Positions 20,885 to 64,000 of a DNA stretch of 64,000 nucleotides are shown here, piece after piece. Source of the stretch: Atractiella rhizophila (taxonomy: Eukaryota). Position numbers and translations under genes: made by a program. The DNA lies in the NCBI GenBank assembly GCA_021432655.1, contig MU271336.1, positions 1 to 64,000 of the forward strand. The letters run 5' to 3'. Numbering within the stretch: position 1 is the first letter of the stretch; each line of letters starts with the position of its first letter. The notes under the pieces were generated by a model that was given only the letters and a program-made list of their open reading frames with translations, was not told the DNA's origin and did not search any database.

Positions 20885-22020
20885 CTACAAGTCTAATGTT
20901 TCAACACCATCAATGAAGCATAGAAAACTTCCATTCCTGCTCCGACATACCTGCAGTAGAGACCCAACGTCCACTCTCTCCAGACTCACAATGTCCCGCA
21001 GAACTCTCTTCGCAAAGCAGGCTCCAACCTTGTGATCTATCTGATAGCTATGGACCCAGGCAGCAGCCCAGTTGAAAGCGTCGGAATAATAACCTGATGG
21101 AACGAGATCGTTCAAATCTGAAAAGCACAAAGTCTTGAGCCGTGAGAGCGTTGCGATGTGTGGTAATAAATCCTATGGTCCCGCTGAAAACAGGTTCGGA
21201 CCATAGACATGTAGGTCCAGCGCTCACCTCTAAGTCGTTTTCGGATCTTCCGTACACACCGAGCGTCTCCAACCGAGGTAAGAGGGTACAAACCACTGCG
21301 TAGCAAGTGAGAAGAAGTGACCTGGTTGTGAAAAAGAGAGTACACTGAGTGAGCTCCTCGTCCCACACTTCCGCCAATCTCAGGTCGCGTAGATTTGGCA
21401 GACCCAGAGCAGCGTCCAACAACGAAAGAGTGAATTGGTCCCGGCGAAAAGAGAAGACGTTTTTCATATTCAGTGTTCTGACCTTTGGAAAATGTTGCAA
21501 GACGGGAGTCAAGAAAAGTGGTGCTGCGATTGTGTTGACAGTTGGGAACGTTGGAAATGAAGTTGGCAAGGGTGTGGCGCCTAAATGGGTTGGTAGAACA
21601 CAGCATCGCTCACAGATGTTGAGTTCTAGGGAGGAAAGACGAGGAAAGATGCTGAGGAGGGACAGAATTTCTGACCAAAGTGTCGTGTGCGCCAAAGACG
21701 CGTCATGATGAGTAGATGACGAGAAGAGCTCCAAGTGCAACGATCTTAAACAATAGTCAGAAGAGTCTCTGAAACTTGAACACAACCAACAAGACCGTTC
21801 TTGAAAAGTCAGATTTTCCAGCATGAGCAATTAGCGCTCTGATCATTTCATCCGCTATTGCACACCTTTGACGAAGATGGATATGCTTGAAAAGCAGAGA
21901 TGAAGAAACATCCCGAAGCTGACGGTTGCAAAGCGACAGATTTTTCAGCCACTTTATCCCTATCCTGGCTGCAATGAGGTAAAGGATGTCATCGCTAAGG
22001 CCCAGGAGGAGGGAAGCCAT
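20885..22020 (-). CDS. F-box-like/LRR (RNI-like) protein
   Basis: N-terminal LLGLSDDILYLIA..LKNLSLCNRQLRDVSSSLLFKHI; LRR words FPRLSSLEL, LPNLRDLRL, LPRLETLGV; frame change near 21760-21830 (intron or lesion). Confidence 0.7.
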
Positions 22021-22669
22021 AGAGAAATCTGTATTTTCGAGAAAGAGATATCTTACTATATGTGTTCTGCCTTAAGGCGACGATCCGCTACAGCTCCATA
22101 CGCAATGATACAGACTGTAGGTCATGACTGCATCGACCGAGATCGCTAGAAATATAAGGAGATGTTGCCCTTTCAGCCGAGGAACTCAGTCTCCTGCGCT
22201 AAAGGCGACCGGGGGTCACATCGCAGATAGCCGCGCCACTTGTAGAGTATAAGATTGAGGTTGCCGTAACAGTCCTGTCAAGGGTCGATGAAGAGCGAAT
22301 TCTGCCATGTTTTACAGTACAAACTGTCGCAGATACAGAACCGTAAATCTTGTGTCCAGTGGACCGTTGGTCCGTCTTCACTAACCACAAAAACAAGCGC
22401 ACGTCAATGCATAGAGATGGCAACAAAACAAACGTCCACAAAGCAGAGCGACCCTTCCTCCTATGCATCTACATCTGTTGGCCTCCAGAACGCAAAACGT
22501 TCGACAAGGGCCGAGACTTCCTTGAATGGAGCACAGATCACGGAGATCGGAAAAGAAACGGAGGCGCGGGGAGGAGGAGGGTGTGTCGGTTTGAAGCCCA
22601 GCGAGGTCAAGGTCCATGAGCGTAGTCAAGGACGACCTGGAGAGTCTCAAAACCGGTAGAGATAAAACG

Positions 22670-23790
22670 TTATCTTTTCAAGTCGCACCATAAAAGTCTT
22701 ATAGTCGTGCCATTCTTTTGGCGACAATGGATCGCGACTAAAGCTGGAGGGAATTCCTGCAATTGTTTTCCAACTGATCGGTCGAAGGTGCAGTGCGAAA
22801 AAGTGTTACTACCTCTCCATAGCCGCCACCACAGCGGATCGTTTCCTTGCGTTGTGCTGGATATGGAATCTAAACTGGAGGCGTTTGGCAGCACAAGTGC
22901 CTTTGTTGAAAGAGAAGGAGCCACATTCAAATTCGTCCGCCGTTGGGTATTTCAGATGTCCTGCATGGAAGTTCCCTATGATGTCCATCTCATGGAAATC
23001 AAGAATCGTTTTACCTGACGTGAGGAGACGTCCATGACGTCAAAATGGGATAGGATGTTGATGGTTAACTTTTAGGATTGTGCGACCCCGAGGAAATTCA
23101 CGTCCTCGTCGATGGACACAAAGGCATCCGAACTGCTTTTAAAGTGCTTGAACTTGCAGGTTGTCGAATACCGGTCGTATCCGGTCAGTGATCAGATACC
23201 AACTGTCAAGGGTCAATTTCCCGTTCATTATTTCGACGCGGGATGGCCACAACTTGATCACCCCTGATGAAAGTGGAAGATGTGGGAAAGAATCGAGAAG
23301 GTTTCGGATGAAGTTTGTCGGTATTTTGAGCGTGAGTAAACGTGGGAGGAGTGGAGTGACGAATTGATGTCGATATAGTTGTTGTTAGAATAGCCGTGAA
23401 GGTACAAGTGTTGGAGAGATTTCTTGACAAGGTGGAAGAGCCGGAGGGATTCCATCCAGAACGTATGGTATGCATCGTCGTTTCCAAAGCCATGTGATTG
23501 AAAGACTTGAAGATACGAGAGAGTTCTGGTGGAGCCGAGAAGAAAGATGACTAGGAGGGAGAATGGAATGATAATGAGGGAGCAGTGTCCAAACGAAGGT
23601 GCGGTGGGCTGCGATGTAACAATATCTATTGAATCGAGTTCGATGAAAAATTCGCATTCTTGCAAGCCCATAAACCAATCTTGTAGTAGTGGTTGGGTGT
23701 CAATGTAAGCCGATCGGAGGAGGAGAGTCTTGGGATTCAAAGGCATTCGAAGGCGAATGAGTGGAGTCGTCATCTCCCAGTTCCCTAAGC
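22670..23790 (-). pseudogene. LRR-like hypothetical gene, possibly degenerate
   Basis: ORF 23258-23773 with SLQHLYLHG / LSYLQV words; downstream frames interrupted by stops. Confidence 0.3.
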
Positions 23791-24937
23791 TTTCCCAAAA
23801 ACCTCTCTCGTGCTCTTCTTATCATTCATGTCGATGTCACTCTTTACGGCAAGGGCCTCACGTAACACTGACAGGAGAGGGCTGCCATATGAACAAAAGA
23901 ATGCGATTGGGGTAAGCGACAGAAAGACTGAGGTTACGATCGAGGAGGAGTGTGAAAGTAAGTATGCTCCACAGTCTTGACCAGTGAACAAGGTTCAATG
24001 TAAGCATTGGAGGAGTCGACGAACGAGAGATAACCTCATGCCGTGTTTTGCGTGGCTTCAAAGAGAAGCTCGCCGAACCCATCCTTTCCTACATAAAGAC
24101 TGTGTTAGTTCCCCTCATCAGAATGTAGAAACACATACCCTCTAGCAATTGATATCTCCTTCATCTGACCACCGTTTTCTGGCACCGAAAACTTTTGCTT
24201 TGACTTGCCAAGCTCGTTGTTTGACTGTTTGGCTCCTCGTCAAGTTCAGGTCAAGGAATCGTATGTTGCATACTGATACCTTATCCTAGAGCTATCTTGC
24301 CTACGTGCTTCCAGTCACGATGGTCGCAGTCATGGCAACTGCAAGGCAAAGCAATATGTTTTCAAAGATATCACTTTCAAGTTTCAGTTCGGATCCAAAT
24401 GCACTTCAAGTTGTTTATGCAGCATTCAGTGAACAGCACTACAGTTCTCCACTAATGAGCAAAGTCAACCCTGATGCTAGCTAAGCGCTGTTGAGTAGCG
24501 AGACGTCCACGAGCAGGAAATGTCGGCTGGCTTGGTCGGCCGGATGCTCGATCAATCCTCCCGCGTCTCATGAATCTCATCTTCGCTTGTGATCGCGAAA
24601 CGCCTACAGCTCAGATTCTTCGATGTTATTCAAGCTTCGAGTTTCGAATCTATCCCTACCTTAAGCTTTATCATCGCATCATCCAAGCTCATACCCTTTC
24701 AAGACGGTTCTCTCGATCTCCATCCAGTTTTGCGCGTCCAAGGATTCAGGAGCTATGACCACAAGTTCAAAGCACACGATCTATCCTAGGATGTTTCATC
24801 ATACCGAGTACTTTTTGCCTCCTTCGTGTCTCTAGGGCACTCACGCTCGGCGCTCCCTCGATCTCATCCTTTGCATTATTAGAATATAAAAGTGTCTGCA
24901 GGTTAGTGCGTCCTTTTCATCATCGACATTGCTCAAA

Positions 24938-26016
24938 ATGCGTTCCATTCCTCTCCTTTCTCTCCTTTCCATAGTTTTCGCTCGGGATTTCTACGTCTCC
25001 TCACCGTTCAACGTCTCGGACGCACTCCCTTACGGGCTGAAGAACGGCGATGGGGAAGACTACAATATTTTCGGAACCACTTATCGCATGCTCCTCCCCG
25101 TCGCGCACACCGGCGGACCAGGGGGATTGACCATCTTCTCGATTGTGGGAGGAGTTGGAACAAGTGCCACCGCACACTATCATCACATCCCTGATGTAAA
25201 TTGTCCCCTTAGAGTTCCAATGCGTTGCACCTGAAAGAAAAATACTTGCAGGCACATTTTGTTGCCAGTGGCGCGCTGGACTTCTACTTCAATGCCGAGA
25301 GCCTAGACAGCCCAGATGTCAACCAAACGGTTTCTCTCCACGCTGAAAAAGGCGACATCATCTTCGTTCCGCCTCTCCACGCCCATAGCTTCACTTTCAG
25401 CTCTGCCTCCACCGAACTCCTCGCTTCCTTCCGCCTATCCTCTGTAAACACGGACGACTTCCTCCCTGCCCTTGCTGCCGCCACCTCACTCGCGGAGGCA
25501 GCTGCAATTGGAGCGAAATACGATCTGAACTTTTTGGATGGACCGACGTTTCTGAATACGACAGTGACTCCAGACAGCTCATGGCGCGAAGCCACCAACC
25601 AATCTCCCCCCACTGGACCCGAATTCTATGGTCTCGTCAGCTCAGACGCTGAATCCGTTGGAATGTCCAGCCCTCTTGTGGGCAAGGCACAGACCGATCT
25701 CTACGTCCATAAGCTCCTCACCCTTCCTTCCAGAGGGAAGATTGGGGTGGAATCTAATCCAGTCAATACTGCCACTTGGGTCAAGTCAGGAACGGTATCC
25801 GTGACCCCTTCTGGTCTAAGTAAGGCAACTGCTGTTGAGGGAGACTTCGTGTTTTTCCCCAAGGGTAGTTCTGGAAGTATCTCCGCGAGCAGCAGCGCAG
25901 AATTATACGTGGTTAGCGATGAAGATAAAGGGTTAGGGTATAGAGTGAGTCTTGGATTTCTCACAGTGACATGAAGAACTGAAAACTATTGTGTGATTTA
26001 GCGGTTCTGGGCGTGA
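24938..26016 (+). CDS. Secreted bicupin, quercetin 2,3-dioxygenase-like
   Basis: Signal peptide MRSIPLLSLLSIVFA; cupin motif 1 AHYHHIPD-AHFVASG; motif 2 GDIIFVPPLHAHSF; second degenerate cupin GDFVFFPKG; TATA-like tataaaa ~24885. Confidence 0.75.
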
Positions 26017-26322
26017 TGTGGGTACCAGTTCGGTGGCTGTCGTTCATTTAGAATTAAATTATAAGAATGCAAAGCTATGGGTGAATGGAATACACTCAGA
26101 CCTGGCCAGCCTGATGCTGCACACTGACACAAAATATGCGTTCGAGCTGGCCCTGGCTGATAGCTTCAGTACTATGTTACACCCATGCTTCCACATTATG
26201 ATGACGTGAGTGGATAACATCCAATTAGTACCACTTCCAAACACGGAAGAAGAAAAAAAGATCTCGAGCTCCATTGGGCTAGTCGCGCTCTTGTTCGTAC
26301 TTCATAAGAAATTGAACAGTAT

Positions 26323-27234
26323 CACGGGAGGCAATAAGCTGTCCGTTCGTTAAAATTTTAGGCTCCGGACGATCCGTCCGCCGCTCCATGCCATCTCTTT
26401 TTCTTTTCAATGACGACAACCCCAACCTGAATGAGTGCTCTAGAGACCACTGCTTTATGACTTGACATGTTGATTTTTCTACAAGACATCTGTCCTGCAA
26501 AAGAGCTGCCCCATTCCCACCACGGTATGCCATGGTAAATTTTGGGAGTATTAGTAAATTTCACTTGTCTCTGGCTTGTACTTCAATGGGTAGAGAAATG
26601 TGTCCCCCTTCAATCGGCCTTGACTTGTTCCATTAACGCATTGTAAATAAGGTGAAAGCAAGAACCCGGTCGTAAACATGATTGTGTTGTGTCTGCTGTG
26701 TCAAGCTTTTGAAGGAGAAAGGAGACAAGCAGATATTAAATCTAGATGTCTTGTTGCCTTACTGTCAGCCTGTCAGCAAAGTCTGAAGCTGAAGGTATAA
26801 GATGATATATCCGTCATTGCCCTGAATGCATGGTAGAGCAATGTCGCAGAGGGAAGTTGGTCAATATGCGCAAATCACCGCACAGAAACAGAAGGTTTTG
26901 TACTTGTTTGCGCTCATTTGCGCCAGGTGGCAAAGGTACATAGCCCATACCTTTCTTCAATGTTATCTACGTCGTCTGAAATGGAAATGTACTCATGGGA
27001 CTGTACTCAAAGAATGACGGAATGGCAACCAGTTTTTTGCTGCTTCTCTTATGAAAGCTCCATCGTCACCATCCCCTGATTGATCCCAATGTGTATTGTG
27101 AGAGTTTCCCACTTCCAGTCCCATCCTTTCTCCCCTTCCAATTCCACTGCCCATAGCTAGACGGTAAATCCTATACCTCAATGTTGAAGCATGGGAAACC
27201 TACCAGGTAACAGTATGGGTATCAAGCGTATGAT
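26323..27234 (+). repeat. Left terminal inverted repeat (~912 bp)
   Basis: Reverse complement of 34358-35267 and 36453-37365; same short ORFs (MKFTNTPKIY.., MHGRAMSQ..) appear on opposite strands. Confidence 0.97.
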
Positions 27235-29645
27235 GCTCTTCGAAAACACTGAGCTCTTTCTGCATGGAGAACGGGCAAAGAATCCCAATTTGGTCTTGGA
27301 GTTTAGGCTTACCCTCCAGTTGACATACTGGCTATGAAAAACTCGAACAGAGAGTGCAGCGAACGAGGTCAACGCCACTTCTGCATAACTTCCAACGAAC
27401 AGCACTTTTTCTCGGCCTGGCTCTACGTCGTTGACCCCACATTTGGGCTGAAAAGGTGTCAAAATGATGGCCTGTGTTACGGTTCGTGCCAAATTCACAG
27501 ACAAAAAATTAATGCAATTGCGTTATTACGTCAAAGCTCTTTACGAATCAAAAGGACTCTACTGTTGCAGAGCAGAGATAATCGCTGGCAAAACAGTTGA
27601 CCTATCTCAATTCATACGGTTAAAGACAACTAGTCCCTGAGGTCAAGACAGCAAGACTTGGGGCCATGAGCATTATTTTTGACGATGGGCATCAAATCGA
27701 TACCGAGAAGGATGAATGTGTATTAGTACCTAAGATGTATTATTTACAATAACCATGGTGGTAGAGATCTAGAAATACAGCATTGGGGTAATTAATCAAA
27801 AGTTATACGTTCTCTAGAATAAACTTGCCTGAAAGACAACTTATCTGAAGGACAAGAAATCTGGCAGAAATGGCGAAAGACTGCGTATTCCTATAGGCAA
27901 TAAGGGTTTAGGACGAGAGCAGCATCAAGTCAAGCAAGCGAGCGCGGGGAAGAATAAATGTGACGTTATTTGGCTTTTCTTGCTTCGATTCTGCTTTGAC
28001 ATGTTCAAGGAAGAGGGTCAAGCCTCAACAAACATCAGCCTGTATTCTTCTTTCAGATAACTTAACACAATACCGAGGGAGCATCTCAGAAATCTAACAA
28101 CTACACGTCAGATGATGGGAATACAAAGAAGATTAAACATCCGATACGAAGGTGCTTGCAAGCTTGCATGGAAGGCAGATTTTGAATTGAGATGCAACCA
28201 AACCGTGGTGCATGGTGTATCATCAGAGCAGATGATTGTTAACTGATGGGCACATCAGAGGATTCTTGGGCAGATTTGAGAAATCTGTGACAAAGATGAT
28301 GAATGGCAGTTTGCACGCCAAGGTCAGGCCAGCATAAGTTAACCACTAGAGTATGCCTTTATTGCAGTGACTGGACCTGAATGCCTAGTTCTATATTTCA
28401 TCGTTTCTGTTGAGAACAAATGGGCAAATGTTATCCCCCAACAACAACAAACGTGCAATGGCTTGCTCGATGCTCACAAAGTTCATTTTAATAAGGGTTC
28501 AATGAGACAGGGGGATCACTGTGGGTTACAGAAATGGGCAAGCATTTGGATCATGATGACATAACTTATTTCATTCAATTGCACATGGTGAGGGAGGTAT
28601 GAGGGCTCATCCTCCTCTGCTGAAAATCCAAAGAAAACACCAATTCTTGCAGTCAGTCCTCCTGCGCTCCGACACAAACACACACTATGAAGTTCTTAGA
28701 GAAAGATCGTATGAAGACAATCCTGAAGCTGGTGCCCAAAGCGACACAGCCATTGCAGCACAGGCATGGTGACGAGAGCAGGCAGTGAAGTGGGAGGACG
28801 AGGATTCACACTTGGAAAGGTTGAATCGTACGCGGAAAAGAAGAACTTGCAAAAGTAGTTCTGTGCGCTGGAAGTCGCGAACGAGTTGGAAGGAGAGCTG
28901 GACGATAGTGGTGTGGAGATTGTGGAATCAAGGGAAATTGGAGGGAAGGAGAAGGTCAACCTGCTTTCAGGAGTAGAGGAGATGGGGAGGTGGTTTGATA
29001 TGCCTTCTGAGGAGAGAAAGTCATTGGGGATATCGTGGTAGATCATTGATAGCTTGGATATGGGCATGGAGCGTCGTACTGAAGTTGTGCTCATATGGTT
29101 ATAAGTGTCTTTGCACGTAATCTTATGAGCTAAGATTGTTGATGAATATGGGAAGCCAATGGACACGCAAGTTGTTTTGTTTGACACATGAGCAGTATGT
29201 CTATGATACAATGCCTAAACGTGGGTCTGATAACAATCTTCATCATCGACGGAGTTCTTTGTCAAGAGTATTGAAGGTTACTTTCGGGTCAAAGTTGCGT
29301 ACGCTTGTCATTGAATGATGGCGTGGAGCCAAGCCTAACCGGGTTCACGACCTCAAAGAGGATGTATTTCAGTTAGGATTGAGTGTCTCCATTTCCTGAG
29401 AATCATGACTGAACGTAATTTCCTCCGATTTCTCTCTTTACATGGAGTTGACACTGAATCCATTCGCACTTCTTCATGAAGCTGAAAAGTTCTCTTTGTA
29501 CGAGTCAGCATAGTTCATTCATAGCGCTTTGCCTACGAAACTGTACCAATGAGCTAGGTCAATGTTTGCCAAACATAGGTACTGGATATCAAGCACGACT
29601 CACGATGGCCTTGTGAATGGGTCCTCCCACCTCCGTCCATCCAGT

Positions 29646-32600
29646 TCAGTGTGCCTCGATCATCGCGATGCGGTCGAGGCAGTAGGCCCTACCACGTTGA
29701 TCAGCCGTCGAGATGTACAGCTCCTCTGCCAGCTTGAATCGCTCCAGCGCTTCGTCGTTCCTCCCGCATCGCTCCAGCGCTTCGTCGTTCCTCCCGCATT
29801 GGAAAATCGATGTCCCCCATGGATTGGACGCAGTTTGCTCTCCCCTGTGCACTTCCCTGTCGAGATGTAACAGCTCCTCTGCCTGCTTGAATCGCTCCAG
29901 CGCTTCGTTGTTCCTCCCACATCGGAAATCGATGTTCCCCATGGATTTGACGCAGTTTGCTCTGCCCTGTGGATCTCCTGTCGAGATGAACAGCTCCTCT
30001 ACCTGCTTGAATCGCTCCAGCGCTTCGTCGTTCCTCCCGCATTGGAAATCGATGTCCCCCATGGATTCGACGCAGTTTGCTCTGCCCTGTGGATCTCCTG
30101 TCGAGATGAACAGCTCCTCTACCCCCTGTGGATCTCCTGTTGAGATGTACAGCTCCTCTGCCTGCTTGAATCGCTCCAGCGCTTCGTCGTTCCTCCCGCA
30201 TTGGAAATCGATGTCCCCCATGGATTCGACACAGTTTGCTCTCCCCTGTGGATCTCCTGTTGAGATGTACAGCTCCTCTGCCTGCTTGAATCGCTCCAGC
30301 GCTTCATCGTTCCTTCCGCATCGGAAATCGATCTTCGCAATGGCTTGGACACAGTCTGCGCGGTGTCTAATGCTTATACTGTTGTTCATAGAGTCATGCA
30401 GCTCTGTTAAGGCTCTACTAGTATACCCTCGAAAATCAAGATCTTTTCCAAGGTAGAACTGCAAGCGACTCATCACCACAGTAGACAACTCCTTTCTTGA
30501 TAGCATTCTCTGGAGCAGTTGCGTTGTATCAAAGCTCTTGAATTGGAGGATGTTTGCATTTTTCAACACGAATGCTTCAATGCTTTCATTCATTTCTGGA
30601 ACATGCAGTAGACTGTCAAGAACGACTTGTTGAAGGTTCACATATTCATCTCTGAACTCCAGTAAGGCATCTTGCTTCTTCGTCCCATCAAATTGGGCGA
30701 TTCTTTCTTGTGCTCTGCCCAACAGGCAATTGGCGAGAGGCTGAAGCGATTCTGCGACATGCAAAGAGAATGGGTCGATTCGCCTCAAAACAAGTTCGTT
30801 CATATATTTTCGAACAGGTGCGAGCATACGCAAGCGTCTCTTCGCCCCAGGAACCTCGTCTGCAAGACCAACGTCCACGATGGAGACAAGGGCACGGTAA
30901 TCTCCAGCAAGTAAGTCTTCCAGGTCGAGGAGCAGGAGACCATCTGGAGACCAAGACAGAAATGATAGGGCGAGGGAACTGCCGGGCAGTTCTTTGAGAA
31001 TGGGAGACGTGAGAGAAAATCCGAGCGATACGTCTAGAGTAGGTGTACCGTCTCTGCCATCAGCGTTTGCCGAAAAAACTGCGCTGGCTCGATGCCGCCA
31101 CTTTTCTAGAAGGACTGCTGCACTCGAGAAAGGATCGGAACGTGCTCTCAGAGCAAAAAGGCGGATCGACAGTGGATGGTAATCCAAACACAATAAAATG
31201 TCTTGTGTGACCGCCACATTTTGCGGGTCACGAGCTTTCTCATAGAAGTGACAAAAGGTATTGGTGGCTGCTTCCTTATCCTCCTTCAGCGTGCCAATGA
31301 CAACTGGCGCAAAGGCAGTGCTATTCACGTCGATAAGGGGCACACGCTGCCCGCGCATAGCAACAACGAGAATAGAACCCACTCCAGGTTCCCCAACAAC
31401 GGCCTGAAGGAAATGTTGCATCCGTTTCGAATCTGAGTGTGCAGGTGTCTCAAAATTGTCCAAGACGAGAAGACATTTATTGCTTCGAAAAAATCAGCGA
31501 CGGCCATCAAATCTGTGGTATCCAACTGGCGAGGTAGAGTGAAAACACGGGAACGCAGATGGCTCTCAAGCGCAGCGAAGGAAGTGAAGCCGTCACAACG
31601 GACCCAAAAGCGTCGCTCGACCAGAAAATGTCCTTCTCGAATTATGAAAGCAGCTTTCACAAGCTCGTCATGCAACGCAGCAAGTGCGACCGTCGATTTT
31701 CCGTTTCCGGCTAAACCTATGATTGCTACGTGCTGACCGCTTCGAATGGCCGTCCGCACAGCTTCAATCTCCTTCGTTTGCCCGTAGCAAAGTCCTCGTG
31801 GCGGGACAGGCTCTTTCTCATGAACCGCTACACGAGTAGGTTGAGCTGACGGACTTGTCATTAGCCCATAATGAAGGCGGACCAAAAAGCATACCGAGGA
31901 TTATAGATTCTGCCACGGCTTTCATTTCATAACGCAGTCCCTCCAAGTGAGCTTTCGTTTCTCCAACAACTTCCTTCATCCTCCCAAACTCGTCCCATTC
32001 GACACAACCCAGCGTGTCGACGTTGAATCGATGGTAGCAGTGGCCGATCCCACGCATTCGCATTTCGTCCTTCATTGTTTAGTCGACGCGAGAGCAGTCT
32101 TCAACGACTTTTTTGAAGGCATCCTTGATTTTGTTCGGCGTCGACCCAAGTTTCACTGCGGAACGAATACCAACTCCCAAGGAGAGGAAACAAATGACTT
32201 CGGTCCCATCCCCCCAGATCCTCTTTGCCTCTGTCGCAGCGAAAGAGGATGGGTTGTTGTTGCCAATCAGGACATACTCTGTCCTGTCGAGAGTGATCGG
32301 AGGAAAGAACGTCGGTTCAGCGGATGTCGCTCTCGCAGCTTCTACTATGGAGCACTTGACAGACCTGCTACCAGAGGGGAGATGGTAAGTGCGCATCTCT
32401 ACAGGAACTACTGAGTTGGCTCCGTAAGTCGCAATGACAAAGGCTCGACATCGCTCGTCGAAGTTGGGATCGAGCATTGGAAGGCGCGCATCGTCCAAGG
32501 TGGAGAGCATCGATCTTTCGGACGGTGGGGCGTGATCTCTGGCGATCCTCTCGAAAATGCACTCAAAGGCTCTGTCGGAATAAGCGGATGAGCCCTCTGT

Positions 32601-33161
32601 ACGCAACGTCTTCTCGGAGAAGACCCCTCTTACGATCTCGTCGAAAGCATCCATACACTCTCGGACAGTCATCCCCAACCTCCCAAGCATCAAAGCAATC
32701 CATCCTCCGGTCGAAGTGCCGCAGATGAGGTCGAAGAATTGGCATGGTCGAAGGGTTCTGGAGTCTGGCTTCCCAGGAAGAAGATCGGCTACTTGCTCCA
32801 TGATGGCTTCGAGCATGTAAAGGCACGAGAAGGCACAGACGCCTCCATTGTCGATCGAAAGGAGCCGAAGACCTTTGGTATTAACCTTCTTGATATCCGC
32901 AAGCCGTATCTGCAAGTCGCGGTCGATCATCGTATTTCTGATGGGCTCGGAATGCGATATGGACGGCGGAGGGATCGGTTGATTTGATAGAGGAACACTT
33001 GGTAGCGTTACGCGGGGGTACGCAGGTTGTGATGGGTGTAACTTCGGTTGACTCCCATTTGATTCGTTCGGAAATGAATCAGCGGGTTTTGCAACCTCAG
33101 CGTCAGCGTCGTAAGATGTGGAACGGCGGAGGCAGCAGATGCATCGGGAATGGTTGTTCAT
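29646..33161 (-). CDS. Fungal NLR-like gene: patatin-like phospholipase - STAND (NB-ARC-like) NTPase - TPR repeats; interrupted as assembled
   Basis: LRLLSIDNGG, PCQFFDLICGTSTGGWIALMLGRL, EAARATSAEPTFF (patatin); intron 31894-31846; Walker A GLAGNGKS, RRFWVRCD, Walker B CLLVLDNFET, LDYHPLSI, RMLAPVRKY; 40-aa TPRs. In-frame TAA at 32079-32081 and a frameshift at ~31490. Confidence 0.9.
29660..30365 (-). repeat. Tandem 120-bp TPR-coding repeats (~5 units plus a 39-bp partial unit and a 30-bp duplication)
   Basis: Unit GRANCV(E/K/Q)SMG(D/N)IDF(Q/R)CGRNDEALERFKQ(A/V)EEL(Y/F)ISTGDPQ, near-identical at DNA level. Confidence 0.97.
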
Positions 33162-34357
33162 GAGCGTACACGTTTTTCCGTTCTAACAAAGATAAAGGTC
33201 AATACAATATCCACTTTTGCATTGCAACGGTGCCAATGCAGCATGCAAAGCTCAATCGTAACATGGGCAGCTATGTTGAAAGCAATGCCTCAGTCATTCC
33301 ACAAGAGAAAAAGCCTGATTCCAACAGTCGCAGGAAAGCTTTGAGGAGGAAGTGGTCACAAGCGTAGAACAACTCAGCTCAAAGCAACACTGACCGTACG
33401 TCATAGAAGTTGAAAGAAGGGTAGTGACAGTGTAAAACACGATGGCACACTAAACCGTTCCTCATGCCTTCCTCAACATTATTGCTAAGGTTCGATGCTC
33501 CAATACTGGCTTCAATAGCATCACTTCATGGAGATGTCACTGAGCATTTACTCGGTATGTAACGCAACGCGCGCAAAACATGCTAGTTTACAGTGATTGC
33601 TCCGTCTGAGGGTTTCCCATCTGGCCCCATACAAACGAGTGTTCGTTAGCAGGTAAAGTACACACCTTTGAAGGTACCGATCACAAAGTTCAGCTTGTTC
33701 AGTAACTGCCCTCCTAGGTAGCTCCCACAGAAGGGCATCGATGTTGCTTTCTTCGTCTTTTCGCGAAATTGGAACACATCAGCATGTCATTCATCAATTC
33801 GGAAATGACATTCCAGATGTGCTGCTTAACCTTGCTTCGTTTCAATGTTACATACTTTGCTCTGCTGATCACCGCAATGATCGGGACTATCTTCTCCAGC
33901 CGATTTGCAGGACAGACAAGGAAGGTGCAGTTCGTATCCGTCTACATCTGACACAGCATTGAAAATGGGTGACTAAGGACAGGGCAAGTATCTGTTCTAG
34001 ATGATGCCATCTATCCATTTCCCCACTCCGTTCGACGGATAACATCTCACAAAGCTCCCCTCCCCTTCCGAGGAATCTTCGAATCCGTCTGCACTCTTGC
34101 GGCATGCACAGTTAGAATACAATGATCATAATCGTACCTACGTCCTACTGCCTGGGGCGGTTCGGTTTATCGAGCAGTTCCTCCTTCAATGCACCTGGAT
34201 TCGACATCTCTGGCGGAGCAAACATCGAACAATTCTTTGTTCATGTTGGACATGACCCTAGCTTTATGCACATTCAATATGTCTTTCGTGATGTTGGTGG
34301 ACACGATCAAGCGTACAGGCTAGAAAACAAATTGAGACTGACTCCATCTGGGTTCTG

Positions 34358-35267
34358 ATCATATGTTTGATACCCATGCTGTCACCTGGTAGGTTTCCCA
34401 TGCTTCAACATTGAGGTATAGGATTTACCGTCTAGCTATGGGCAGTGGAATTGGAAGGGGAGAAAGGATGGGGGCTGGAAGTGAGAAACTCTCACAATAC
34501 ACATTGGGATCAATCAGGGGATGGTGACGATGGAGCTTTCATAAGAGAAGCAGCAAAAAACTGGTTGCCATTCCGTCATTCTTTGAGTACAGTCCCATGA
34601 GTACGTTTCCATCTCAGACGACGTAGATAACATTGAAGAAAGGTATGGGCTATGTACCTTTGCCACCTGGCGCAAATGAGCGCAAACAAGTACAAAACCT
34701 TCTGTTTCTGTGCGGTGATTTGCGCATATTGACCAACTTCCCTCTGCGACATTGCTCTACCATGCATTCAGGGCAATGATGGAGATAGCACTTTCTTATA
34801 CCTTCAGACTTTGCTGACAGGCTGACAGTAAGGCAACAAGACATCTAGATTTAATATCTGCTTGTCTCCTTTCTCCTTCAAAAGCTTGACACAGCAGACA
34901 CAACACAATCATGTTTACGACCGGGTTCTTGCTTTCACCTTATTTACAATGCGTTAATGGAACAAGTCAAGGCCGATTGAAGGGGGACACATTTCTCTAC
35001 CCATTGAAGTACAAGCCAGAGACAAGTGAAATTTACTAATACTCCCAAAATTTACCATGGCATACCGTGGTGGGAATGGGGCAGCTCTTTTGCAGGACAG
35101 ATGTCTTGTAGAAAAATCAACATGTCAAGTCATAAAGCAGTGGTCTCTAGAGCACTCATTCAGGTTGGGGTTGTCGTCATTGAAAAGAAAAAGAGATGGC
35201 ATGGAGCGGCGGACGGATCGTCCGGAGCCTAAAATTTTAACGAACGGACAGCTTATTGCCTCCCGTG
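34358..35267 (-). repeat. Inner right TIR copy
   Basis: Reverse complement of 26323-27234; carries a private variant at ~34775-34810. Confidence 0.95.
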
Positions 35268-36452
35268 ATTTTTCCGTTCTAACAAAGATAAAGGTCAATA
35301 CAATATCCCCTTTTGCATTGCAACGTGCCAGTGCAGCATGCAAAGCTCCATCGTAACATGGGCAGCTATGTTGAAAGCAATGCTTCAGTCATTCCACAAG
35401 AGAAAAAGCCTGATTCCAACAGTAGCAGGAAAGCTTTGAGGAGGAAGTGGTCACAAGCGTAGAACAACTCAGCTCAAAGCAACACTGACCGTACGTCATA
35501 GAAGTTGAAAGAAGGGTAGTGACAGTGTAAAACACGATGGCACACTAAACCGTTCCTCATGCCTTCCTCAACATTATTGCTAAGGTTCGATGCTCCAATA
35601 CTGGCTTCAATAGCATCACTTCATGGAGATGTCACTGAGCATTTACTCGGTATGTAACGCAACGCGCGCAAAACATGCTAGTTTACAGTGATTGCTCCGT
35701 CTGAGGGTTTCCCATCTGGCCCCATACAAACGAGTGTTCGTTAGCAGGTAAAGTACACACCTTTGAAGGTACCGATCACAAAGTTCAGCTTGTTCAGTAA
35801 CTGCCCTCCTAGGTAGCTCCCACAGAAGGGCATCGATGTTGCTTTCTTCGTCTTTTCGCGAAATTGGAACACATCAGCATGTCATTCATCAATTCGGAAA
35901 TGACATTCCAGATGTGCTGCTTAACCTTGCTTCGTTTCAATGTTACATACTTTGCTCTGCTGATCACCGCAATGATCGGGACTATCTTCTCCAGCCGATT
36001 TGCAGGACAGACAAGGAAGGTGCAGTTCGTATCCGTCTACATCTGACACAGCATTGAAAATGGGTGACTAAGGACAGGGCAAGTATCTGTTCTAGATGAT
36101 GCCATCTATCCATTTCCCCACTCCGTTCGACGGATAACATCTCACAAAGCTCCCCTCCCCTTCCGAGGAATCTTCGAATCCGTCTGCACTCTTGCGGCAT
36201 GCACAGTTAGAATACAATGATCATAATCGTACCTACGTCCTACTGCCTGGGGCGGTTCGGTTTATCGAGCAGTTCCTCCTTCAATGCACCTGGATTCGAC
36301 ATCTCTGGCGGAGCAAACATCGAACAATTCTTTGTTCATGTTGGACATGACCCTAGCTTTATGCACATTCAATATGTCTTTCGTGATGTTGGTGGACACG
36401 ATCAAGCGTACAGGCTAGAAAACAAATTGAGACTGACTCCATCTGGGTTCTG

Positions 36453-37365
36453 ATCATATGTTTGATACCCATGCTGTCACCTGGTAGGTTTCCCATGCTT
36501 CAACATTGAGGTATAGGATTTACCGTCTAGCTATGGGCAGTGGAATTGGAAGGGGAGAAAGGATGGGGGCTGGAAGTGAGAAACTCTCACAATACACATT
36601 GGGATCAATCAGGGGATGGTGACGATGGAGCTTTCATAAGAGAAGCAGCAAAAAACTGGTTGCCATTCCGTCATTCTTTGAGTACAGTCCCATGAGTACG
36701 TTTCCATCTCAGACGACGTAGATAACATTGAAGAAAGGTATGGGCTATGTACCTTTGCCACCTGGCGCAAATGAGCGCAAACAAGTACAAAACCTTCTGT
36801 TTCTGTGCGGTGATTTGCGCATATTGACCAACTTCCCTCTGCGACATTGCTCTACCATGCATTCAGGGCAATGACGGATATATCATCTTATACCTTCAGC
36901 TTCAGACTTTGCTGACAGGCTGACAGTAAGGCAACAAGACATCTAGATTTAATATCTGCTTGTCTCCTTTCTCCTTCAAAAGCTTGACACAGCAGACACA
37001 ACACAATCATGTTTACGACCGGGTTCTTGCTTTCACCTTATTTACAATGCGTTAATGGAACAAGTCAAGGCCGATTGAAGGGGGACACATTTCTCTACCC
37101 ATTGAAGTACAAGCCAGAGACAAGTGAAATTTACTAATACTCCCAAAATTTACCATGGCATACCGTGGTGGGAATGGGGCAGCTCTTTTGCAGGACAGAT
37201 GTCTTGTAGAAAAATCAACATGTCAAGTCATAAAGCAGTGGTCTCTAGAGCACTCATTCAGGTTGGGGTTGTCGTCATTGAAAAGAAAAAGAGATGGCAT
37301 GGAGCGGCGGACGGATCGTCCGGAGCCTAAAATTTTAACGAACGGACAGCTTATTGCCTCCCGTG
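36453..37365 (-). repeat. Outer right TIR copy
   Basis: Reverse complement of 26323-27234; followed by TAT. Confidence 0.95.
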
Positions 37366-38953
37366 TATGCTTCCGTTTAAACGATCCAAGTTCCAGAGGA
37401 GCGGTCGTAACATTTGATAACCTTGCGCTTTCTTTGCGCACACGTCGACAGAGGGTACAGATGGGCAACCAGCAGCTGTCCGAAGACTACTTTTGGTTAA
37501 AAGGTGTATTCTCCATATTCTCCATCCATCATTCCCTTCACCTTACGGTTCCTTCTCCGCTCGATCTGAACAATTTCATGGGACAGGCTATGCAGTAACT
37601 TAATGCGACAAGCCCGTTTAATATATTATTTACAACTGGATTGCTCCAGTAAAGTTCCTCAACGCGACACCTCTTTTTTGTGTTTATTTATCCAGTCAAT
37701 TTTCAGTGAGTTGCTGTTGTATTCCAGTCCTCAACGACAATGGTTCCTGCAGCTTCTCTTTACTTGCTTTGCGTCACAATTTTCCTTTTGCTACAAGAAC
37801 GGTTCCCCTGAATTCACCGCTTACTTTACTTTAATGTACGTTGATGTCAAGATTGATCCTGCATGCTTGAGCAATTTGCTTCTGTCGCGGTTCGACTTTC
37901 GATGTCAACAGTTTGTTTACTACATTTCGCATAGGGTTATTATTCAAAGGACTCAGAGCCGTGAGGCTCTGAATATGGCCATGCGCTTCTCTTCACCATT
38001 CACCGTTCTCTTCTCCGGGATGTGCGCCATCTTCCTTCAATTCTTGCAATGCGTATGGGGCTGCATGGCTGGTCGAGGTTCGTTGTTTCAATTGGCGGAG
38101 TTGAACTGATGAGTTTTTCGATGTAGATTGGCAGTTTATTGGGAGCATACATAAACTCTACAAAGTGTGCGAGCGTATCTTCACACCACGTCCGCCGAAA
38201 AGAAGTTGGAAGAAGAGAATTGTCACCGATTTGGCCAAACTACTCTCACGACGCAATTGGTATCGACGTGGGCATCCTTCAAGCTGCTGCAGAGATCGGT
38301 AGTAGGACTCAAATGCTACAAGAGCTGAGCGAAGGAAGTCGCTGATGAGGGCCATCTTTCCGAACGCTTCTCCATGAAACTCCACTCTTTTCACATTTTA
38401 TTCCGCAGGCGCAGAAAGCAAGAGTAGACTTCTGCACTAGAGTCCCCGAGGGACCTATGGCGGCTTTCATCATGTTCGCCTCCCCAGAGCGATTTGGACT
38501 AGTCGTTGCGAAATTTTAAGTACACACTACTTCATTTCAACAGCTAATTTCCTTGCTTAACTTTGTCCAACAAGGGTTCAAGGTCCGTTCCCCACAACCC
38601 TTCCTCCAATCTCTTCATTCATTCATTGACTGAGGGTTAATTCTTTGTGTCTAACTCTACTCTGTCTGCATCCTCCTTTAGGCCCCAGTCCTTCGTATCA
38701 AACGAGATGAAGGCTCGCGACTTACTTTCATCCACCAACAACGAAGCCGTCCATTGGCATCACAATTCTCACGAATAGTTCGTCGCAGGCAGCCTCTCAA
38801 TCTCAATTTCTGTTCATCCCCCTCGAACGGTTGCGATGCCGCAAATTTCGTCGGGTGACGCCGTCAAGCAGGCAAGGCTGGGTCTCTTCACTCACTTCTT
38901 CTTCAGCTGAGTTACATCGTGGGCTATAGTCTGCTGTTTATTCTCAGGAAATA

Positions 38954-40579
38954 ATGGAGCAGCAAACGTCTATCTTATGCCATGACCATCAAGAATCAAT
39001 TTTGGCACAAGTGAATGTCATTACTTCGCATCGCTGCGAGGCTCTCTACCTCTCCATTCTTCCATCTTTCTTGTCTTGCCTGCCGCCGTCAATTCACACA
39101 CTCCGGATATCTTTTGTCTTATCCCAACAATTGACGGAATTGGATCCTGTGAAGATGTCCTCGAAACTGTCTTATTTATCACTTGAACGAATCGAAAATG
39201 AGGTGGAGAAGGATGGTGTGGCGAACATTTTCATCACCATCAACAAGAAGAAGGTCACAGTGAAATTTATTGGAGTCGAACGGCATGGTTCATATGTCGA
39301 AAGAGAGGCTAAATCATTTGTCAACTCAGATTCATATGCCGATCCGTATACATGCACATTTCCTCTCCTTCGCCACAATTCCATCTTCGCCCCCGTGGCT
39401 GAATACTCCACAGACGAAACGTGCTTCATCCCTATCACCGACGATAAATCGTCATCCATCCCATCAATCCCTGACGACCTGTTGTTCATCGTCCAACTCT
39501 CCGTCCCCCCACTTCCAAGTGTCATTCCATGCACAATCTCACGTCTGCCTGCGGAGCTTCTCTCTATCGTATTCAGTTCCGTCTACCAGACCGCCAGCAT
39601 ATCTAAAGTGTGCCGGGCATGGAGAGCCATCTCGGTTCCTTTCTGGCGAGAACCTGCTTCTGCTAAGCAGGCGTATGAACGCTTGAAAGTCTATCCTGGG
39701 GCCGGGCGTCTATGGGATGAATTGTGGTTTGATGAAAATATTAGCGTTGAGATGGTGAAAGAGGTCATCAGAGGGTCACCAAATGTCACGGCAGTAGACG
39801 TCGGCGCATTTTGGAATGAAGAGGAGGCAGAGACTATTTTGCGTGCAATTGAAGGTTTGAGACATGTGTATAACATAACTTTTCGAGAGGGTTCAAGAAA
39901 GTGGAGGAAAGAGGAGGTCGAGAACTTTTCATGGAGGATGGGTTACAGGATCAGATGGCTCAGAGCTTACGGAGTGGTGGCGTCAGTATCGCCAGGTCTC
40001 CTATTAACTCCTGCCCTCGAATACTTAGAACTTGAAAAGTATCCCCCTCTCCAACGGCTCTTCCTCCCGCAAAACCTCGACACCTTGATTCTGTCTAATC
40101 TATGTCCCCTCCCTTCCACCATCTCAGACCGCCCTCTTCCACTTCTTCTGGACCATCTCAGAATCGAGCTAGCGCCCTTCTTCCCCAGTGGAAACACCTC
40201 CATCCTACCCACTCCGCTCGACTTATCGTATCTCACACGGCTCACCTGGCTTCATCTGGACGGAGGCGAAGAGACTTCAAACCTCGTTTCCCGACGGCTC
40301 TTCAGTACGCTAAAAAATGCAAAGGCGATATACAAGATCAAAGTTGCGTACTGTGGGCTGGACTCATCCGATTTCCCAGACTTCATCCGCTGGTTCTTTG
40401 CGGATCAGCGTATAAGTAGTGCCATGAAGAAGTTTGGTGGAATGGAGATGGGGTACAACCTTGATGTAGTGTTATTCTTTGGAGAGTGGCATGAGGAAGA
40501 GATCAGGAATGCCAGGATGGCGATGCAAGAGTGTGTGCTGACGGAGGAGATCAAAGCGAAACTGGAGGAATCTGAGTGA
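38954..40579 (+). CDS. Long uninterrupted ORF, F-box-like plus LRR (RNI-like) protein
   Basis: 541-aa ORF; ISRLPAELLSIVF..ISKVCRAWRAIS; LRR words LEYLELE, LDTLILSNL, LDHLRIEL, LTWLHLDG. Confidence 0.8.
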   Translation: MEQQTSILCHDHQESILAQVNVITSHRCEALYLSILPSFLSCLPPSIHTLRISFVLSQQLTELDPVKMSSKLSYLSLERIENEVEKDGVANIFITINKKKVTVKFIGVERHGSYVEREAKSFVNSDSYADPYTCTFPLLRHNSIFAPVAEYSTDETCFIPITDDKSSSIPSIPDDLLFIVQLSVPPLPSVIPCTISRLPAELLSIVFSSVYQTASISKVCRAWRAISVPFWREPASAKQAYERLKVYPGAGRLWDELWFDENISVEMVKEVIRGSPNVTAVDVGAFWNEEEAETILRAIEGLRHVYNITFREGSRKWRKEEVENFSWRMGYRIRWLRAYGVVASVSPGLLLTPALEYLELEKYPPLQRLFLPQNLDTLILSNLCPLPSTISDRPLPLLLDHLRIELAPFFPSGNTSILPTPLDLSYLTRLTWLHLDGGEETSNLVSRRLFSTLKNAKAIYKIKVAYCGLDSSDFPDFIRWFFADQRISSAMKKFGGMEMGYNLDVVLFFGEWHEEEIRNARMAMQECVLTEEIKAKLEESE

Positions 40580-40837
40580 CGTATGGATGATGAACTCTCG
40601 AGGGGCTCGCTGACTTGGCGTCAACGGGTGGTATCCCCTCACCAGACAGCTTAGAATTATGAACCAAGACGATATCGATACCACCGGCTTATCAACTTGC
40701 GCCAAACTTCAAGCTTCAAGCAGTGCTACAACTAGCCCATCAAGCAAGTAATTCAGAAGAGCCTTCCCATTGATTGTACGTACGACCAAGCTGTCCCTTA
40801 TTCGTTATTGTTATGATGCTTCAAGTTCATTGTTTCC

Positions 40838-40943
40838 TGTGAAAACAAAATACTTGCAAGCACACTTTATTGTGTTGTCAGCGGCGCGCCAGACTTCTAC
40901 TTTAATGCCGGGAGCCTTTAAGGCTCAGATGCCAACCAAACAG
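40838..40943 (+). pseudogene. Degenerate fragment of the bicupin gene
   Basis: gaaaacaaaatacttgcaagcacacttt..gcggcgcgccagacttctactttaatgccgggagcc..cagatgccaaccaaac aligns with 25232-25329 (gaaagaaaaatacttgcaggcacatttt..gtggcgcgctggacttctacttcaatgccgagagcc..cagatgtcaaccaaac), with indels and a stop. Confidence 0.8.
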
Positions 40944-42387
40944 CTTGACTCTATGTTGCTCCACTGGCAATATATACACTAAACGCAAAGTGCTGGGGTG
41001 CATCCCTGCGACTCGCTAAGGCGTGTGCGACCGTCCGAAGCAAACTGAAAGCGTCTGTCTGCTTTAGACCGCGTCACGAGGCAGGGTTAGACAACAAGGA
41101 AAAGCCCACTGAAGGGACAGGTGAGAAGGCTAGCCCTTCTTCCTGATTAGGAATCGGCGTTTAAGCGTAGCAAAGAAGGAAGTCAAAATGGGTAATGTGC
41201 CAGAAAGAAGCCGCGGTTGGCGGCGAAAACAATGTTGAGACTAAAGACGCGCTCTCACTATGATGGGAACGCTAACTGGGGTTGCAAGGCGAAGGGAAGT
41301 GGCGGTTGGACGCCATCTTCACAGCTCCTTCAAAGACCGGGTTGTCAGATTGATCCGCTTCATCCCCTGTTTTGAGTTCGTCCGTCAGGCTAGACAAGCA
41401 TTGGCTGTACTACAGTCATCCAAGAATGAGCTCAAAGAACTGTACGCTCCAACGCTGAGTTCGGCTCATTTCTCATGTTAATAAGACAAGATGCTTCGTT
41501 GAAGCAAATGTGCCAGCTCCTAAATGAACGCTGGTGATATTTGCTACTTTCAGCTGCTCTAGAACTGCCTGGGACCAGCCATCCTTGAATGCGGCTGTGC
41601 ACCTCCACTTTGGCAAACGAGGCTCTAGGACTCCTTTTATGTGTGCGCTGTCTTTCCTGCTCAGAAACAAAACAAAACCTGGAACCTGGAACTTCCAAAT
41701 TGCCAATAATGTGAGGAGCTGCATAGAGCCCCGATTGACGGGTTAGCCGTGCTTGTCTTGTCAAGCAGGTTGTGACTTTCGAATAACACAGAGCCAATCG
41801 TCACTATGAGAAAAGGGAAGGATTTCATAGCCTGGACTCCACACTCTGTCCGTTCTCAATCGCGCAGACTCCCGAACGATTGTAAATCGTCAGCGAATCC
41901 GCATGAGAGTCAGTTCTATGCTCTCCACTCAAATTTGCCATTAAGCCTTCAACTCATTCAATGAAACTTCGACAGCAAAGAAGCAGAAATAAAGTGACAA
42001 AAAAAGAAGACAGAGGTTTTCACAGCCTTTACTTCTTTACCTCATGCAATCTCAACAACTGGAGGAAGTTTCGCACACTTACGTTCATGATCTGTATGAT
42101 TGCAAAGAACGCGAAATGCGGGCTCGGGACCACGACGATGAGACAAGCGCACCAAGATCCGTTACAGTCTTGCCTCCTTTCCCATCCACTTCCTCCTTGC
42201 CTAAAAGCACCATATGCTCAGAAAAGCCACCTCTGCCTAACTATCCACGGTCATGAGGCAGTCTCTCGTCGTTCTACCTATTTCCGCAATCACCTCCACA
42301 CCTTGCAGACGCGACACGATGCGGGGACAACGAGGTGTTTACGCCTCCGGTACCCGATAATTCATGCTCTTCACAGGACGTTGCCCT

Positions 42388-48061: not shown

Positions 48062-48627
48062 TTCTTGCAGCTGCAATTGTATGTACTACTAGCCAACTGG
48101 AACTGGGACATGGAAGTCTGTGATCCTCTTGCTTCAAAATGCATGGGATTGCGATGATTTCCCGACAGCTGAGTCCGAATCAATCAATTCCGAATCAGAA
48201 CCCAGCTTTGCCTGTTGACCATTTAATCATGATCCTGAGGACTTTGTTATTCTGGAGTAGACAAGAAACAGGCCTATTCTACCTCCTGATTCTCTGAAAG
48301 TATCATTCCTTATGACCCTCTCATTCTCCAGCTCTCCTGAACCAACTTGAACGGGATGTCCATAGATCAAGCGATGCTTTTCGGACACTCGGTCCCGTTC
48401 CGATGTTCAAGTTGAAAGGCCTTTCAAGCATCCAAGGCAGGTCTGCTTTTCGCCTTCTTTCAAGTTGTGAAGGGTACATAAATCAGTCAGTGGCTCGCAC
48501 GTTTGAGGGAACCATAGTGTCGTCCTCATCAGGGTATCCGCATCATCCTTCAGTCAGCTTGAGTCTTTCGTGGTAGACATTGTTGTTCTAATGATTGCTT
48601 CAGTAAATAAATCCTTGCACTTGTGGG

Positions 48628-63800: not shown

Positions 63801-64000
63801 CCAGAAAATGTACAACTGGACCAACCGGCTCAGCCGACTATTGATGAAGAAGGATTTTACCTGCAGTCATCCATGACTTTCGAGAACCGTAGCCAGTCCA
63901 GTCTACCAGATAGTCTTACCCATACCCCAGATTCAAATAAAAAGCACCCCGGTCTCCCAGGATCCCTCGGTCCTTGCACTCTCGTGGTGAAGAACACAGT
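60802..64000 (+). repeat. Near-identical second copy of 47446-50656 (3' end of ALDH6 and 5' part of START-like gene)
   Basis: Offset 13356 falling to 13344; differences are scattered SNPs and small intronic indels. Confidence 0.97.

Follow-up and report, generated by a model that had tools for sequence, protein, structure and literature searches.

The 64,000-nt stretch of contig MU271336.1 that was analysed (Atractiella rhizophila, assembly GCA_021432655.1; hereafter the window) contains, at positions 26323–37365, a block that is very likely a single insertion of a non-autonomous class II transposon bounded by terminal inverted repeats (TIRs), carrying a gene that belongs to the family of NOD-like receptors (NLRs). 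The block has long inverted ends, is flanked by a short direct duplication and is missing, exactly from border to border, from contigs of public sequencing runs. The NLR gene inside it has a premature stop codon and a frameshift.

Inverted ends, target-site duplication and empty site

The left arm (26323–27234) and the outer right arm (37365–36453) are inverted copies of each other, with 99.0% identity over 913 columns in a repeat search and a self-BLAST of the window. The left side (26321–27234) also matches, again in inverted orientation, an inner right copy (35269–34358) at 97.9% over 915 columns in the self-BLAST. In a three-way alignment of the arms, the outermost 657 nt were identical between the left and the outer right arm; over the full 912 nt these two differed by 8 substitutions, all 8 of them transitions, plus one 1-nt indel. 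The similarity drops off abruptly inside of 27234. The tips of the element are CACGGGAG (left) and CTCCCGTG (right), with TAT on either flank (26320–26322 and 37366–37368). A preliminary description of this DNA had reported inverted repeats of about 0.91 kb with sharp ends and flanking TAT, and this was confirmed (912 nt, 99.0%). The substitutions between the left and right arms lie within 26980–27228 and the right-arm equivalents, and at least one falls in a CpG (aCg/aTg at 26988). Arm differences that are all transitions would fit deamination of methylated repeats or a process resembling repeat-induced point mutation (RIP), the number of differences being small.

The tips read CACGG; the classical CACTA pentamer is absent from them. 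The motif CGGAC/GTCCG occurs in three copies 19–58 nt from each tip and nowhere else in the arm, compared with a rate of 0.14 per 100 nt in the window. This clustering was picked out post hoc and may be taken as a weak signal. The length of the target-site duplication (TSD) is ambiguous between 2 and 4 nt, because the letters gTAT at the empty-site joint (see below) fit either side, giving TA, TAT or GTAT; TAT is the choice that leaves the ends of the element symmetric. The parts of the locus outside the cargo gene are:

26320–26322, no strand: left copy of the TSD (TAT), from the flanking sequence and the empty-site joint.
26323–27234, plus strand: left TIR of 912 nt, beginning CACGGGAG, from the repeat search, self-BLAST and three-way alignment.
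27235–28980, no strand: interior between the left arm and the 3′ region of the NLR, with no recognisable coding capacity (Pfam scan, E<0.01).
33173–35268, plus strand: tandem unit 1, consisting of the NLR upstream region, the inner right arm (34358–35267) and one A, from the self-BLAST.
35269–37365, plus strand: tandem unit 2, which closes with the outer right arm (36453–37365) and the terminus CTCCCGTG used in the insertion.
37366–37368, no strand: right copy of the TSD (TAT), from the flanking sequence and the empty-site joint.

Public sequencing runs were searched for words of 21323–31322, and three runs contained a fraction of 0.64 (X1), 0.63 (X2) and 0.35 (X3) of the sampled words. Runs X1 and X2 derive from organism A (one sample, one study) and X3 from organism B. 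Contigs of the three runs, assembled with 31-mers, were aligned to 21500–41400. In one contig of X1 and one of X2, position 26318 is joined straight to 37365. The joint omits 11,046 nt, the sum of the element (11,043 nt) and one TAT (3 nt), and the empty-site allele that had been predicted (...acagTATgctt...) is thereby present in both runs. The X2 contig has 249 nt and spans 26185–26318 and 37365–37473; the shorter side of the empty-site contig measures 51 nt in X1 and 115 nt in X2. The joint was not among the X3 matches listed. Since the two sides of the joint have just 4 letters in common (gTAT), a k-mer assembly with 31-mers could not have misjoined the flanks. The exact empty-site contig thus identifies the arm ends as the borders of a genuine insertion. 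The insertion site is intergenic, the longest frame across the empty site being at most 78 aa.

The flanks in X1 and X2 are ∼99.5% identical to the window (e.g. 11 differences in 2010 nt), which indicates that these runs carry another haplotype, from the same organism or from one very close to it. Two letters, that of the window and a second one, occurred together at some flank positions; at 21668, for instance, the other letter had 154.8 of a depth of 230.8 in X1. The sample behind X1 and X2 may accordingly contain a pair of haplotypes, and the window itself may even have been assembled from it. Contig depths were considered as evidence on copy number or heterozygosity and were rejected, as they fit neither simple model and depth is not copy number: arm bins were at about 2–3 times the flank bins, interior contigs at about flank level, and the empty-site contig at 157 versus ∼222 (X1) and 272 versus ∼330 (X2).

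The right arm forms the final 912 nt of a unit of 2,096 nt with two tandem copies, 33173–35268 and 35269–37365, which have 99.05% identity over 2114 columns (self-BLAST); 12 of the 19 differing columns lie in one 25-nt patch. Because the right arm belongs to this duplicated unit, the element has three arms in total. Unit 1 begins 12 nt upstream of the start codon of the NLR gene (33161, minus strand), so that the unit comprises the NLR upstream region and the arm. The inner right arm likewise terminates in CTCCCGTG, and one A separates it from unit 2. In the three-way alignment, the differences between the left and right arms are all common to both right arms. The right arms are identical to each other except for a scrambled 25-nt patch at 34780–34801 in the inner one (12 differing columns including a 3-nt indel), which looks like a small repair or rearrangement scar.

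The 16 nt past the outer terminus (TATGCTTCCGTTTAAAC) and the 16 nt past the inner terminus (ATTTTTCCGTTCTAAC) are alike at 12 of 16 positions, with one offset. In terms of coordinates, 37366–37382 resembles 35268–35284 and 33173–33187, the start of the tandem unit, with a core of TTCCGTT (12/16). Beyond this 16-nt patch no further similarity between flank and element was found, local scores being 23–29 against shuffled maxima of 27–31. The 2.1-kb right end would have been duplicated in place after the insertion, the 16-nt microhomology allowing a repair polymerase to switch template; judged from these letters, such a template switch is probably the source of the duplication. The lone A (or AT) at the inner junction could then be a remnant of TAT.

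Cargo gene and element-like DNA elsewhere

The sole recognisable gene inside the element is a patatin-STAND-type NLR with TPRs. Its features, from the N-terminal to the C-terminal part, are:

29646–33161, minus strand: the whole cargo gene (patatin, P-loop NTPase, TPR), with its ATG at 33161 and its stop at 29646.
32271–32846, minus strand: patatin-like phospholipase domain (PF01734, E = 9.7e-14, residues 113–304 of the open reading frame (ORF) 32079–33182).
32079–32081, minus strand: in-frame TAA stop, VD*TMK against VDKTMK in the related protein P0001.
31846–31894, minus strand: intron of 49 nt (GTATGC...CTAAT...CAG), from the sequence, the frame change and a gap relative to homologues.
31508–31789, minus strand: P-loop NTPase (NOD) region with GLAGNGKS (AAA_16, E = 5.1e-05, 24.3 bits, cut-off 32.6 bits).
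31488–31493, minus strand: T6 homopolymer in which the frame is shifted by 1 nt compared with relatives, from the comparison with P0001 and the contigs of X1–X3.
29718–30425, minus strand: TPR repeats in highly similar 120-nt units (TPR_12, E = 2e-20; units 88–96% alike in DNA).

The domain order is that of a fungal NLR, with an N-terminal patatin domain, a central P-loop NOD and C-terminal TPRs. The NOD is identified by the AAA_16 match below the cut-off together with the GLAGNGKS motif and 79% identity to P0001. The four proteins closest to the patatin ORF are annotated as Atractiella rhizophila and show 70, 46, 47 and 45% identity (top 4 of 24 matches, from 4285 candidates). Both homologues that span the intron (P0002 and P0003, 2 of 2) support it: 64 nt stand in the place of 5 residues, which leaves 49 nt extra and accounts for the first frame change of the gene. 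Since the intron was kept, the NLR moved as genomic DNA and not as a retrocopy.

The TAA falls after the patatin domain, at a position where P0001 has a lysine. The second lesion is a −1 frameshift in the T6 run; P0001 is unbroken there (ADFFRSNKCLL). Contigs of all three runs have an extra base at this run, either an A behind 31487 (4 of X1 and 4 of X2) or a T behind 31493 (1 of X3). The remaining frame is open over 615 codons. With its premature TAA and frameshift, the gene here is most likely a pseudogene in decay, or it may at most code for a free patatin protein of 360 aa. The earlier proposal that the element carries a complete receptor together with its promoter stands in part: the whole gene, its intron and ∼1.2 kb of its upstream DNA are inside the element, whereas the TAA and the frameshift speak against the word "complete".

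The TPR region (29650–30430) contains irregular partial units, such as repeated CGRNDEALER and ELFISTGDPQG segments, and the run contigs show many joints between NLR repeat units. Unequal exchange between NLR repeats of high similarity would be expected to give this pattern.

Coding capacity in the rest of the element was assessed with Pfam at E<0.01. Outside the NLR, 41 six-frame ORFs (length ≥45 aa) gave 0 matches; 52 such ORFs were listed, and the other 11 lie in the inner right arm, a repeat of the scanned left arm. No transposase or recombinase family was found among 36 of the 41 window ORFs of at least 150 aa, and no Plavaka, KDZ, Transposase_21/24, hAT or DUF3435 domain was matched by Pfam in the element or in the scanned window ORFs. 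The Pfam scans thus agree with the initial view that the NLR is the only recognisable gene inside and that a transposase is lacking, and the element is non-autonomous because no transposase is encoded within it. Rfam over 24000–40000 and ARAGORN over the window gave 0 matches each. In metagenomes, the patatin ORF had 161 pattern matches, 0 of which were confirmed by tblastn.

Contigs of X1 and X2 cover the element interior and the tandem units (35292–35961) at ∼99% identity, and a 749-nt contig of X1 covers the interior at 27846–28558 with 7 differences. Two contigs of X1 run into telomere repeats. In one, (TTAGGG)n stands right behind 35044, 223 nt short of the arm tip; in the other, (CCCTAA)n stands right before 32798, within the patatin region of the NLR. 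The telomere repeat was not found in the window; at least some element- or cargo-like DNA of organism A is therefore located elsewhere, at a chromosome end. The telomere-joined sequences look like element- or cargo-like copies that were healed at chromosome ends after truncation. In organism A, copies of the arm have a 9-nt insertion relative to the window at the mirror positions 26479 and 35110, and one X2 contig lacks 2 nt at 26512, minor variation between the element copies of the two haplotypes or strains.

In organism B, one contig joins the NLR start at 33166 to 33666, with the starting letters of unit 1 in between. The NLR and its upstream region are thus contiguous in organism B as well, and the upstream region is ∼480 nt shorter there than in the window (a deletion variant, 33166–33666). 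Another contig of organism B is alike only from 28981 rightwards. These two contigs fit a reading in which the cargo from roughly 28981 to the inner arm border would be ordinary NLR-locus DNA, with the border at 28981 tentative. X3 gave no cover over 26148–28803 and almost none over the right arms, and these gaps are not read as absence of the arms.

Origin of the insertion and alternative explanations

We infer that a transposase encoded elsewhere recognised both 912-nt arms, for which the CACGGGAG termini and the three CGGAC motifs within the first 60 nt would be the likely recognition sites. Cutting would have occurred at the CAC/GTG ends, and integration at a staggered 3-nt cut at TAT in intergenic DNA would have duplicated TAT. 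The cargo would have travelled as a whole host-type gene, in the form of genomic DNA with intron and upstream sequence, and the premature TAA and the frameshift would have arisen later. The insertion is young: the arms do not differ in their outer 657 nt, and the site is still unoccupied in a haplotype whose flanks have diverged by ∼0.5%. Cut-and-paste excision usually leaves a footprint; the single clean TAT of the empty site thus points to a never-occupied ancestral state, and hence to a derived and recent insertion.

Several observations weigh against this origin. X1 and X2 come from a single sample and count as one witness, and the empty site may be another haplotype or nucleus of one isolate rather than another strain. 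The length of the duplication and any target preference come from one insertion (n = 1), and no second junction between terminus and flank was among the listed matches of X1–X3 contigs. A 27-nt terminus probe returned 0 metagenome contigs; for the ORF 37128–37598, which crosses the outer terminus and continues into the flank, none of 28 candidates with shared words was significant. Short TIRs with subterminal repeat arrays are a feature of CACTA/EnSpm elements, and the 912-nt arms here far exceed the usual TIR length of that group; convincing subterminal repeat arrays were not seen, the CGGAC 5-mer in three copies being the sole signal. As to the cargo, the frameshift could stem from a faulty assembly of the T6 homopolymer, in which case the TAA would be the sole lesion; being a substitution, the TAA is less likely to be an assembly error.

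The long and nearly identical arms (912 nt), a cargo that resembles ordinary host DNA with its intron and upstream region, and arm-like DNA beside a telomere elsewhere in organism A would also suit a composite or macro-transposition. Here two small repeat copies in opposite orientation would flank a resident NLR, and their outer ends would move the block; Ac/Ds macrotransposons and Drosophila FB-flanked segments are models for this kind of movement. We consider such an event unlikely. The inner borders at 27234 and 33173 are without CTCCCGTG/CACGGGAG, and both the arm and the 2.1-kb unit are without an inner terminus, so that the arms are not complete small elements. Moreover, everything is lost at once at the empty site, with one duplication.

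It is quite improbable that a transposase had no part at all and that an 11-kb segment with fold-back inverted ends was inserted by double-strand-break repair or ectopic recombination, with TAT arising by chance or microhomology. The element has no transposase, there is one insertion, and its right end is repair-like, with a tandem duplication, a 1-nt filler and 12/16 microhomology with the right flank; a 3-nt match of the flanks is expected by chance in 1 of 64 cases. However, the borders of presence and absence match the inverted-repeat ends and the direct duplication to the base, and the ends are CAC..GTG, as is reported for EnSpm elements of the same subphylum in the accessible part of PMC12730594.

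The reverse polarity, with the filled state ancestral and the empty site produced by deletion or precise excision between the two gTAT microhomologies, is very improbable. The gTAT at both borders would be enough for microhomology-mediated end joining, but a random deletion would have to begin and stop exactly at the tips of a 912-nt inverted repeat. Excision usually leaves a footprint, whereas the contig has a single clean TAT, and the same transposon is involved in any case. An assembly artefact, with the inverted arms or the tandem unit as long-read mis-joins, is barely credible: inverted duplications and homopolymer errors are known in long reads and the frameshift does sit in a homopolymer, but independent short-read contigs cover the arm and unit sequence (including loose ends at the mirror positions 26479 and 35110), the arm tips agree exactly with the empty-site contig, and the arms differ at 9 positions, so that one arm is not a copy error of the other.

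Relation to known elements, neighbouring features and implications

For the insertion of a non-autonomous TIR transposon, as preferred here, the termini and the short duplication would fit the EnSpm/CMCT clade, and both TAT and TA would stay within it. According to the accessible part of PMC12730594, EnSpm families of Pucciniomycotina have 5′-CAC..GTG-3′ termini and 3-bp TSDs, CMCT lineages have common CA..TG termini and TSDs of 2–5 bp, and the ESTA lineage makes TA TSDs; a passenger gene other than a transposase (TET/JBP) is carried by many DNA transposons of fungi. CAC..GTG termini and a duplication in the range of 2–5 bp (3 bp for EnSpm) were both found at the single insertion studied. The element is like the EnSpm/CMCT elements of Pucciniomycotina in its CAC..GTG termini, a duplication compatible with 3 bp (or with TA, as in ESTA) and its passenger gene (PMC12730594). 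Those families are defined by a transposase and autonomous, whereas the element described here has 912-nt arms, no transposase and an NLR as passenger.

The closest likeness in cargo is to ToxhAT of wheat-pathogenic Dothideomycetes, which is described in the accessible part of PMC6737239 as a 14.3-kb element with 74-bp TIRs that are ∼92% identical. In its largest coding sequence, which is placed in the NLR family, TPRs come after a Patatin domain; a hAT-like transposase gene, ToxA and MFS also lie inside, and in that part of the report TSDs were found in no isolate (PMC6737239). Both are thus TIR-bounded fungal elements with a patatin-TPR NLR as host-type cargo. Unlike ToxhAT, the present element has 912-nt arms, a TAT duplication, an empty site, the NLR as its sole recognisable gene, no transposase and a basidiomycete-like genome as its host. 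The hAT characters given in the accessible part of PMC6710886, an 8-bp duplication and a hAT transposase, were not found here, the duplication being 2–4 nt and a hAT domain being absent. Because of ToxhAT, a TIR transposon with a patatin-TPR NLR is not unprecedented.

Pack-TYPE elements mostly carry pieces of genes, in many cases collected from several loci, and their TIRs are short and typical of the family. The present element, in contrast, holds one whole gene with its intron and upstream region. The common ground is that plant Pack-CACTA and Pack-MULE elements, as far as the accessible parts of PMC6379663 and PMC8903248 go, are likewise non-autonomous TIR elements that hold captured, mobilisable chromosomal DNA. 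The element described here is non-autonomous and has captured chromosomal coding DNA between its TIRs, and in this sense it would be of the Pack type. Starships measure tens to hundreds of kb and have a DUF3435 tyrosine-recombinase captain at their start. Unlike these, the element is 11 kb long and without a captain (in the element and the scanned window ORFs), and it has long TIRs and a short duplication. What it shares with Starships, in the accessible parts of PMC9156397 and PMC13449251, is that they are fungal mobile elements with NLR and patatin-type cargo; that Starships carry NLRs is stated in PMC13449251.

A captured host gene in a fungal TIR transposon is also described, in the accessible part of PMC6710886, for a hAT element of Pseudocercospora fijiensis, which took up histone H3 as an intron-less retrocopy, is autonomous with 20-bp TIRs and 8-bp TSDs, and was amplified to hundreds of RIP-mutated copies. 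Unlike in that case, the intron was kept here, as in a capture at the DNA level. With regard to the gene itself, the domain order of the cargo is that of the PLP-1-type NLRs of Heller et al. 2018, which reportedly have an N-terminal patatin domain, a central P-loop NOD and C-terminal TPRs; this likeness is one of architecture alone, and the cargo copy has a premature stop and a frameshift.

Outside the element, the flanking cupin ORF had 4743 candidate relatives in the protein search, none of them significant. A second large direct duplication is present in the window at 47446–50656 and 60802–64000 (98.4% over 3212 columns, copies 13.35 kb apart), which runs off the window end. Its ORFs (e.g. 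49384–50154 and 62728–63498) matched no Pfam family at E≤0.001; for ORF 49384–50154 the best ESM Atlas score was 0.80, to a START domain, which is a weak lead only. In the F-box-like ORF 38930–40579, especially at 39800–40500, many contig joints omit 63–732 nt, and loose contig ends cluster at 40224–40227 in all three runs. This suggests that the region in the gene next to the insertion (38930–40579) contains repeats, varies in length or exists in several copies.

Gene capture by fungal DNA transposons and, with ToxhAT, a TIR transposon carrying a patatin-TPR NLR are already known. Searches of open-access papers and bioRxiv found no TIR element described that lacks a transposase and has an NLR for its sole cargo. 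What is new here is the transposase-less carrier with its very long arms, the NLR as its only gene and the basidiomycete-like genome and, relative to ToxhAT, the target duplication with a matching empty site.

Fungal NLR repertoires turn over fast and vary between strains, by a mechanism that is debated. NLRs with highly similar repeats adjoin transposable elements more often than random genes do, according to the accessible part of a 2026 study (PMC13449251). Direct cases to date, in the accessible parts of the reports, are the giant Starships and ToxhAT, for which no TSD was found. The locus described here unites three marks of transposition around an NLR, namely ends in inverted orientation, a duplicated target and an empty site that matches, and so makes transposon-driven movement of NLRs testable at a concrete locus. 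The likely price of the movement is that the moved NLR copy is already decaying. As a tentative proposal, which we hold to be possible rather than probable, a still-active, low-copy family with long TIRs, mobilised by CMCT transposases, may pick up whole NLRs of highly similar repeats along with their promoters and shuttle them between intergenic and subtelomeric sites in this Atractiella-like basidiomycete. If true, such a carrier family would generate presence/absence polymorphism of NLRs within the species, and this would be the first demonstration, through a duplicated target and an unoccupied site, of a fungal immune receptor moved by a TIR transposon.

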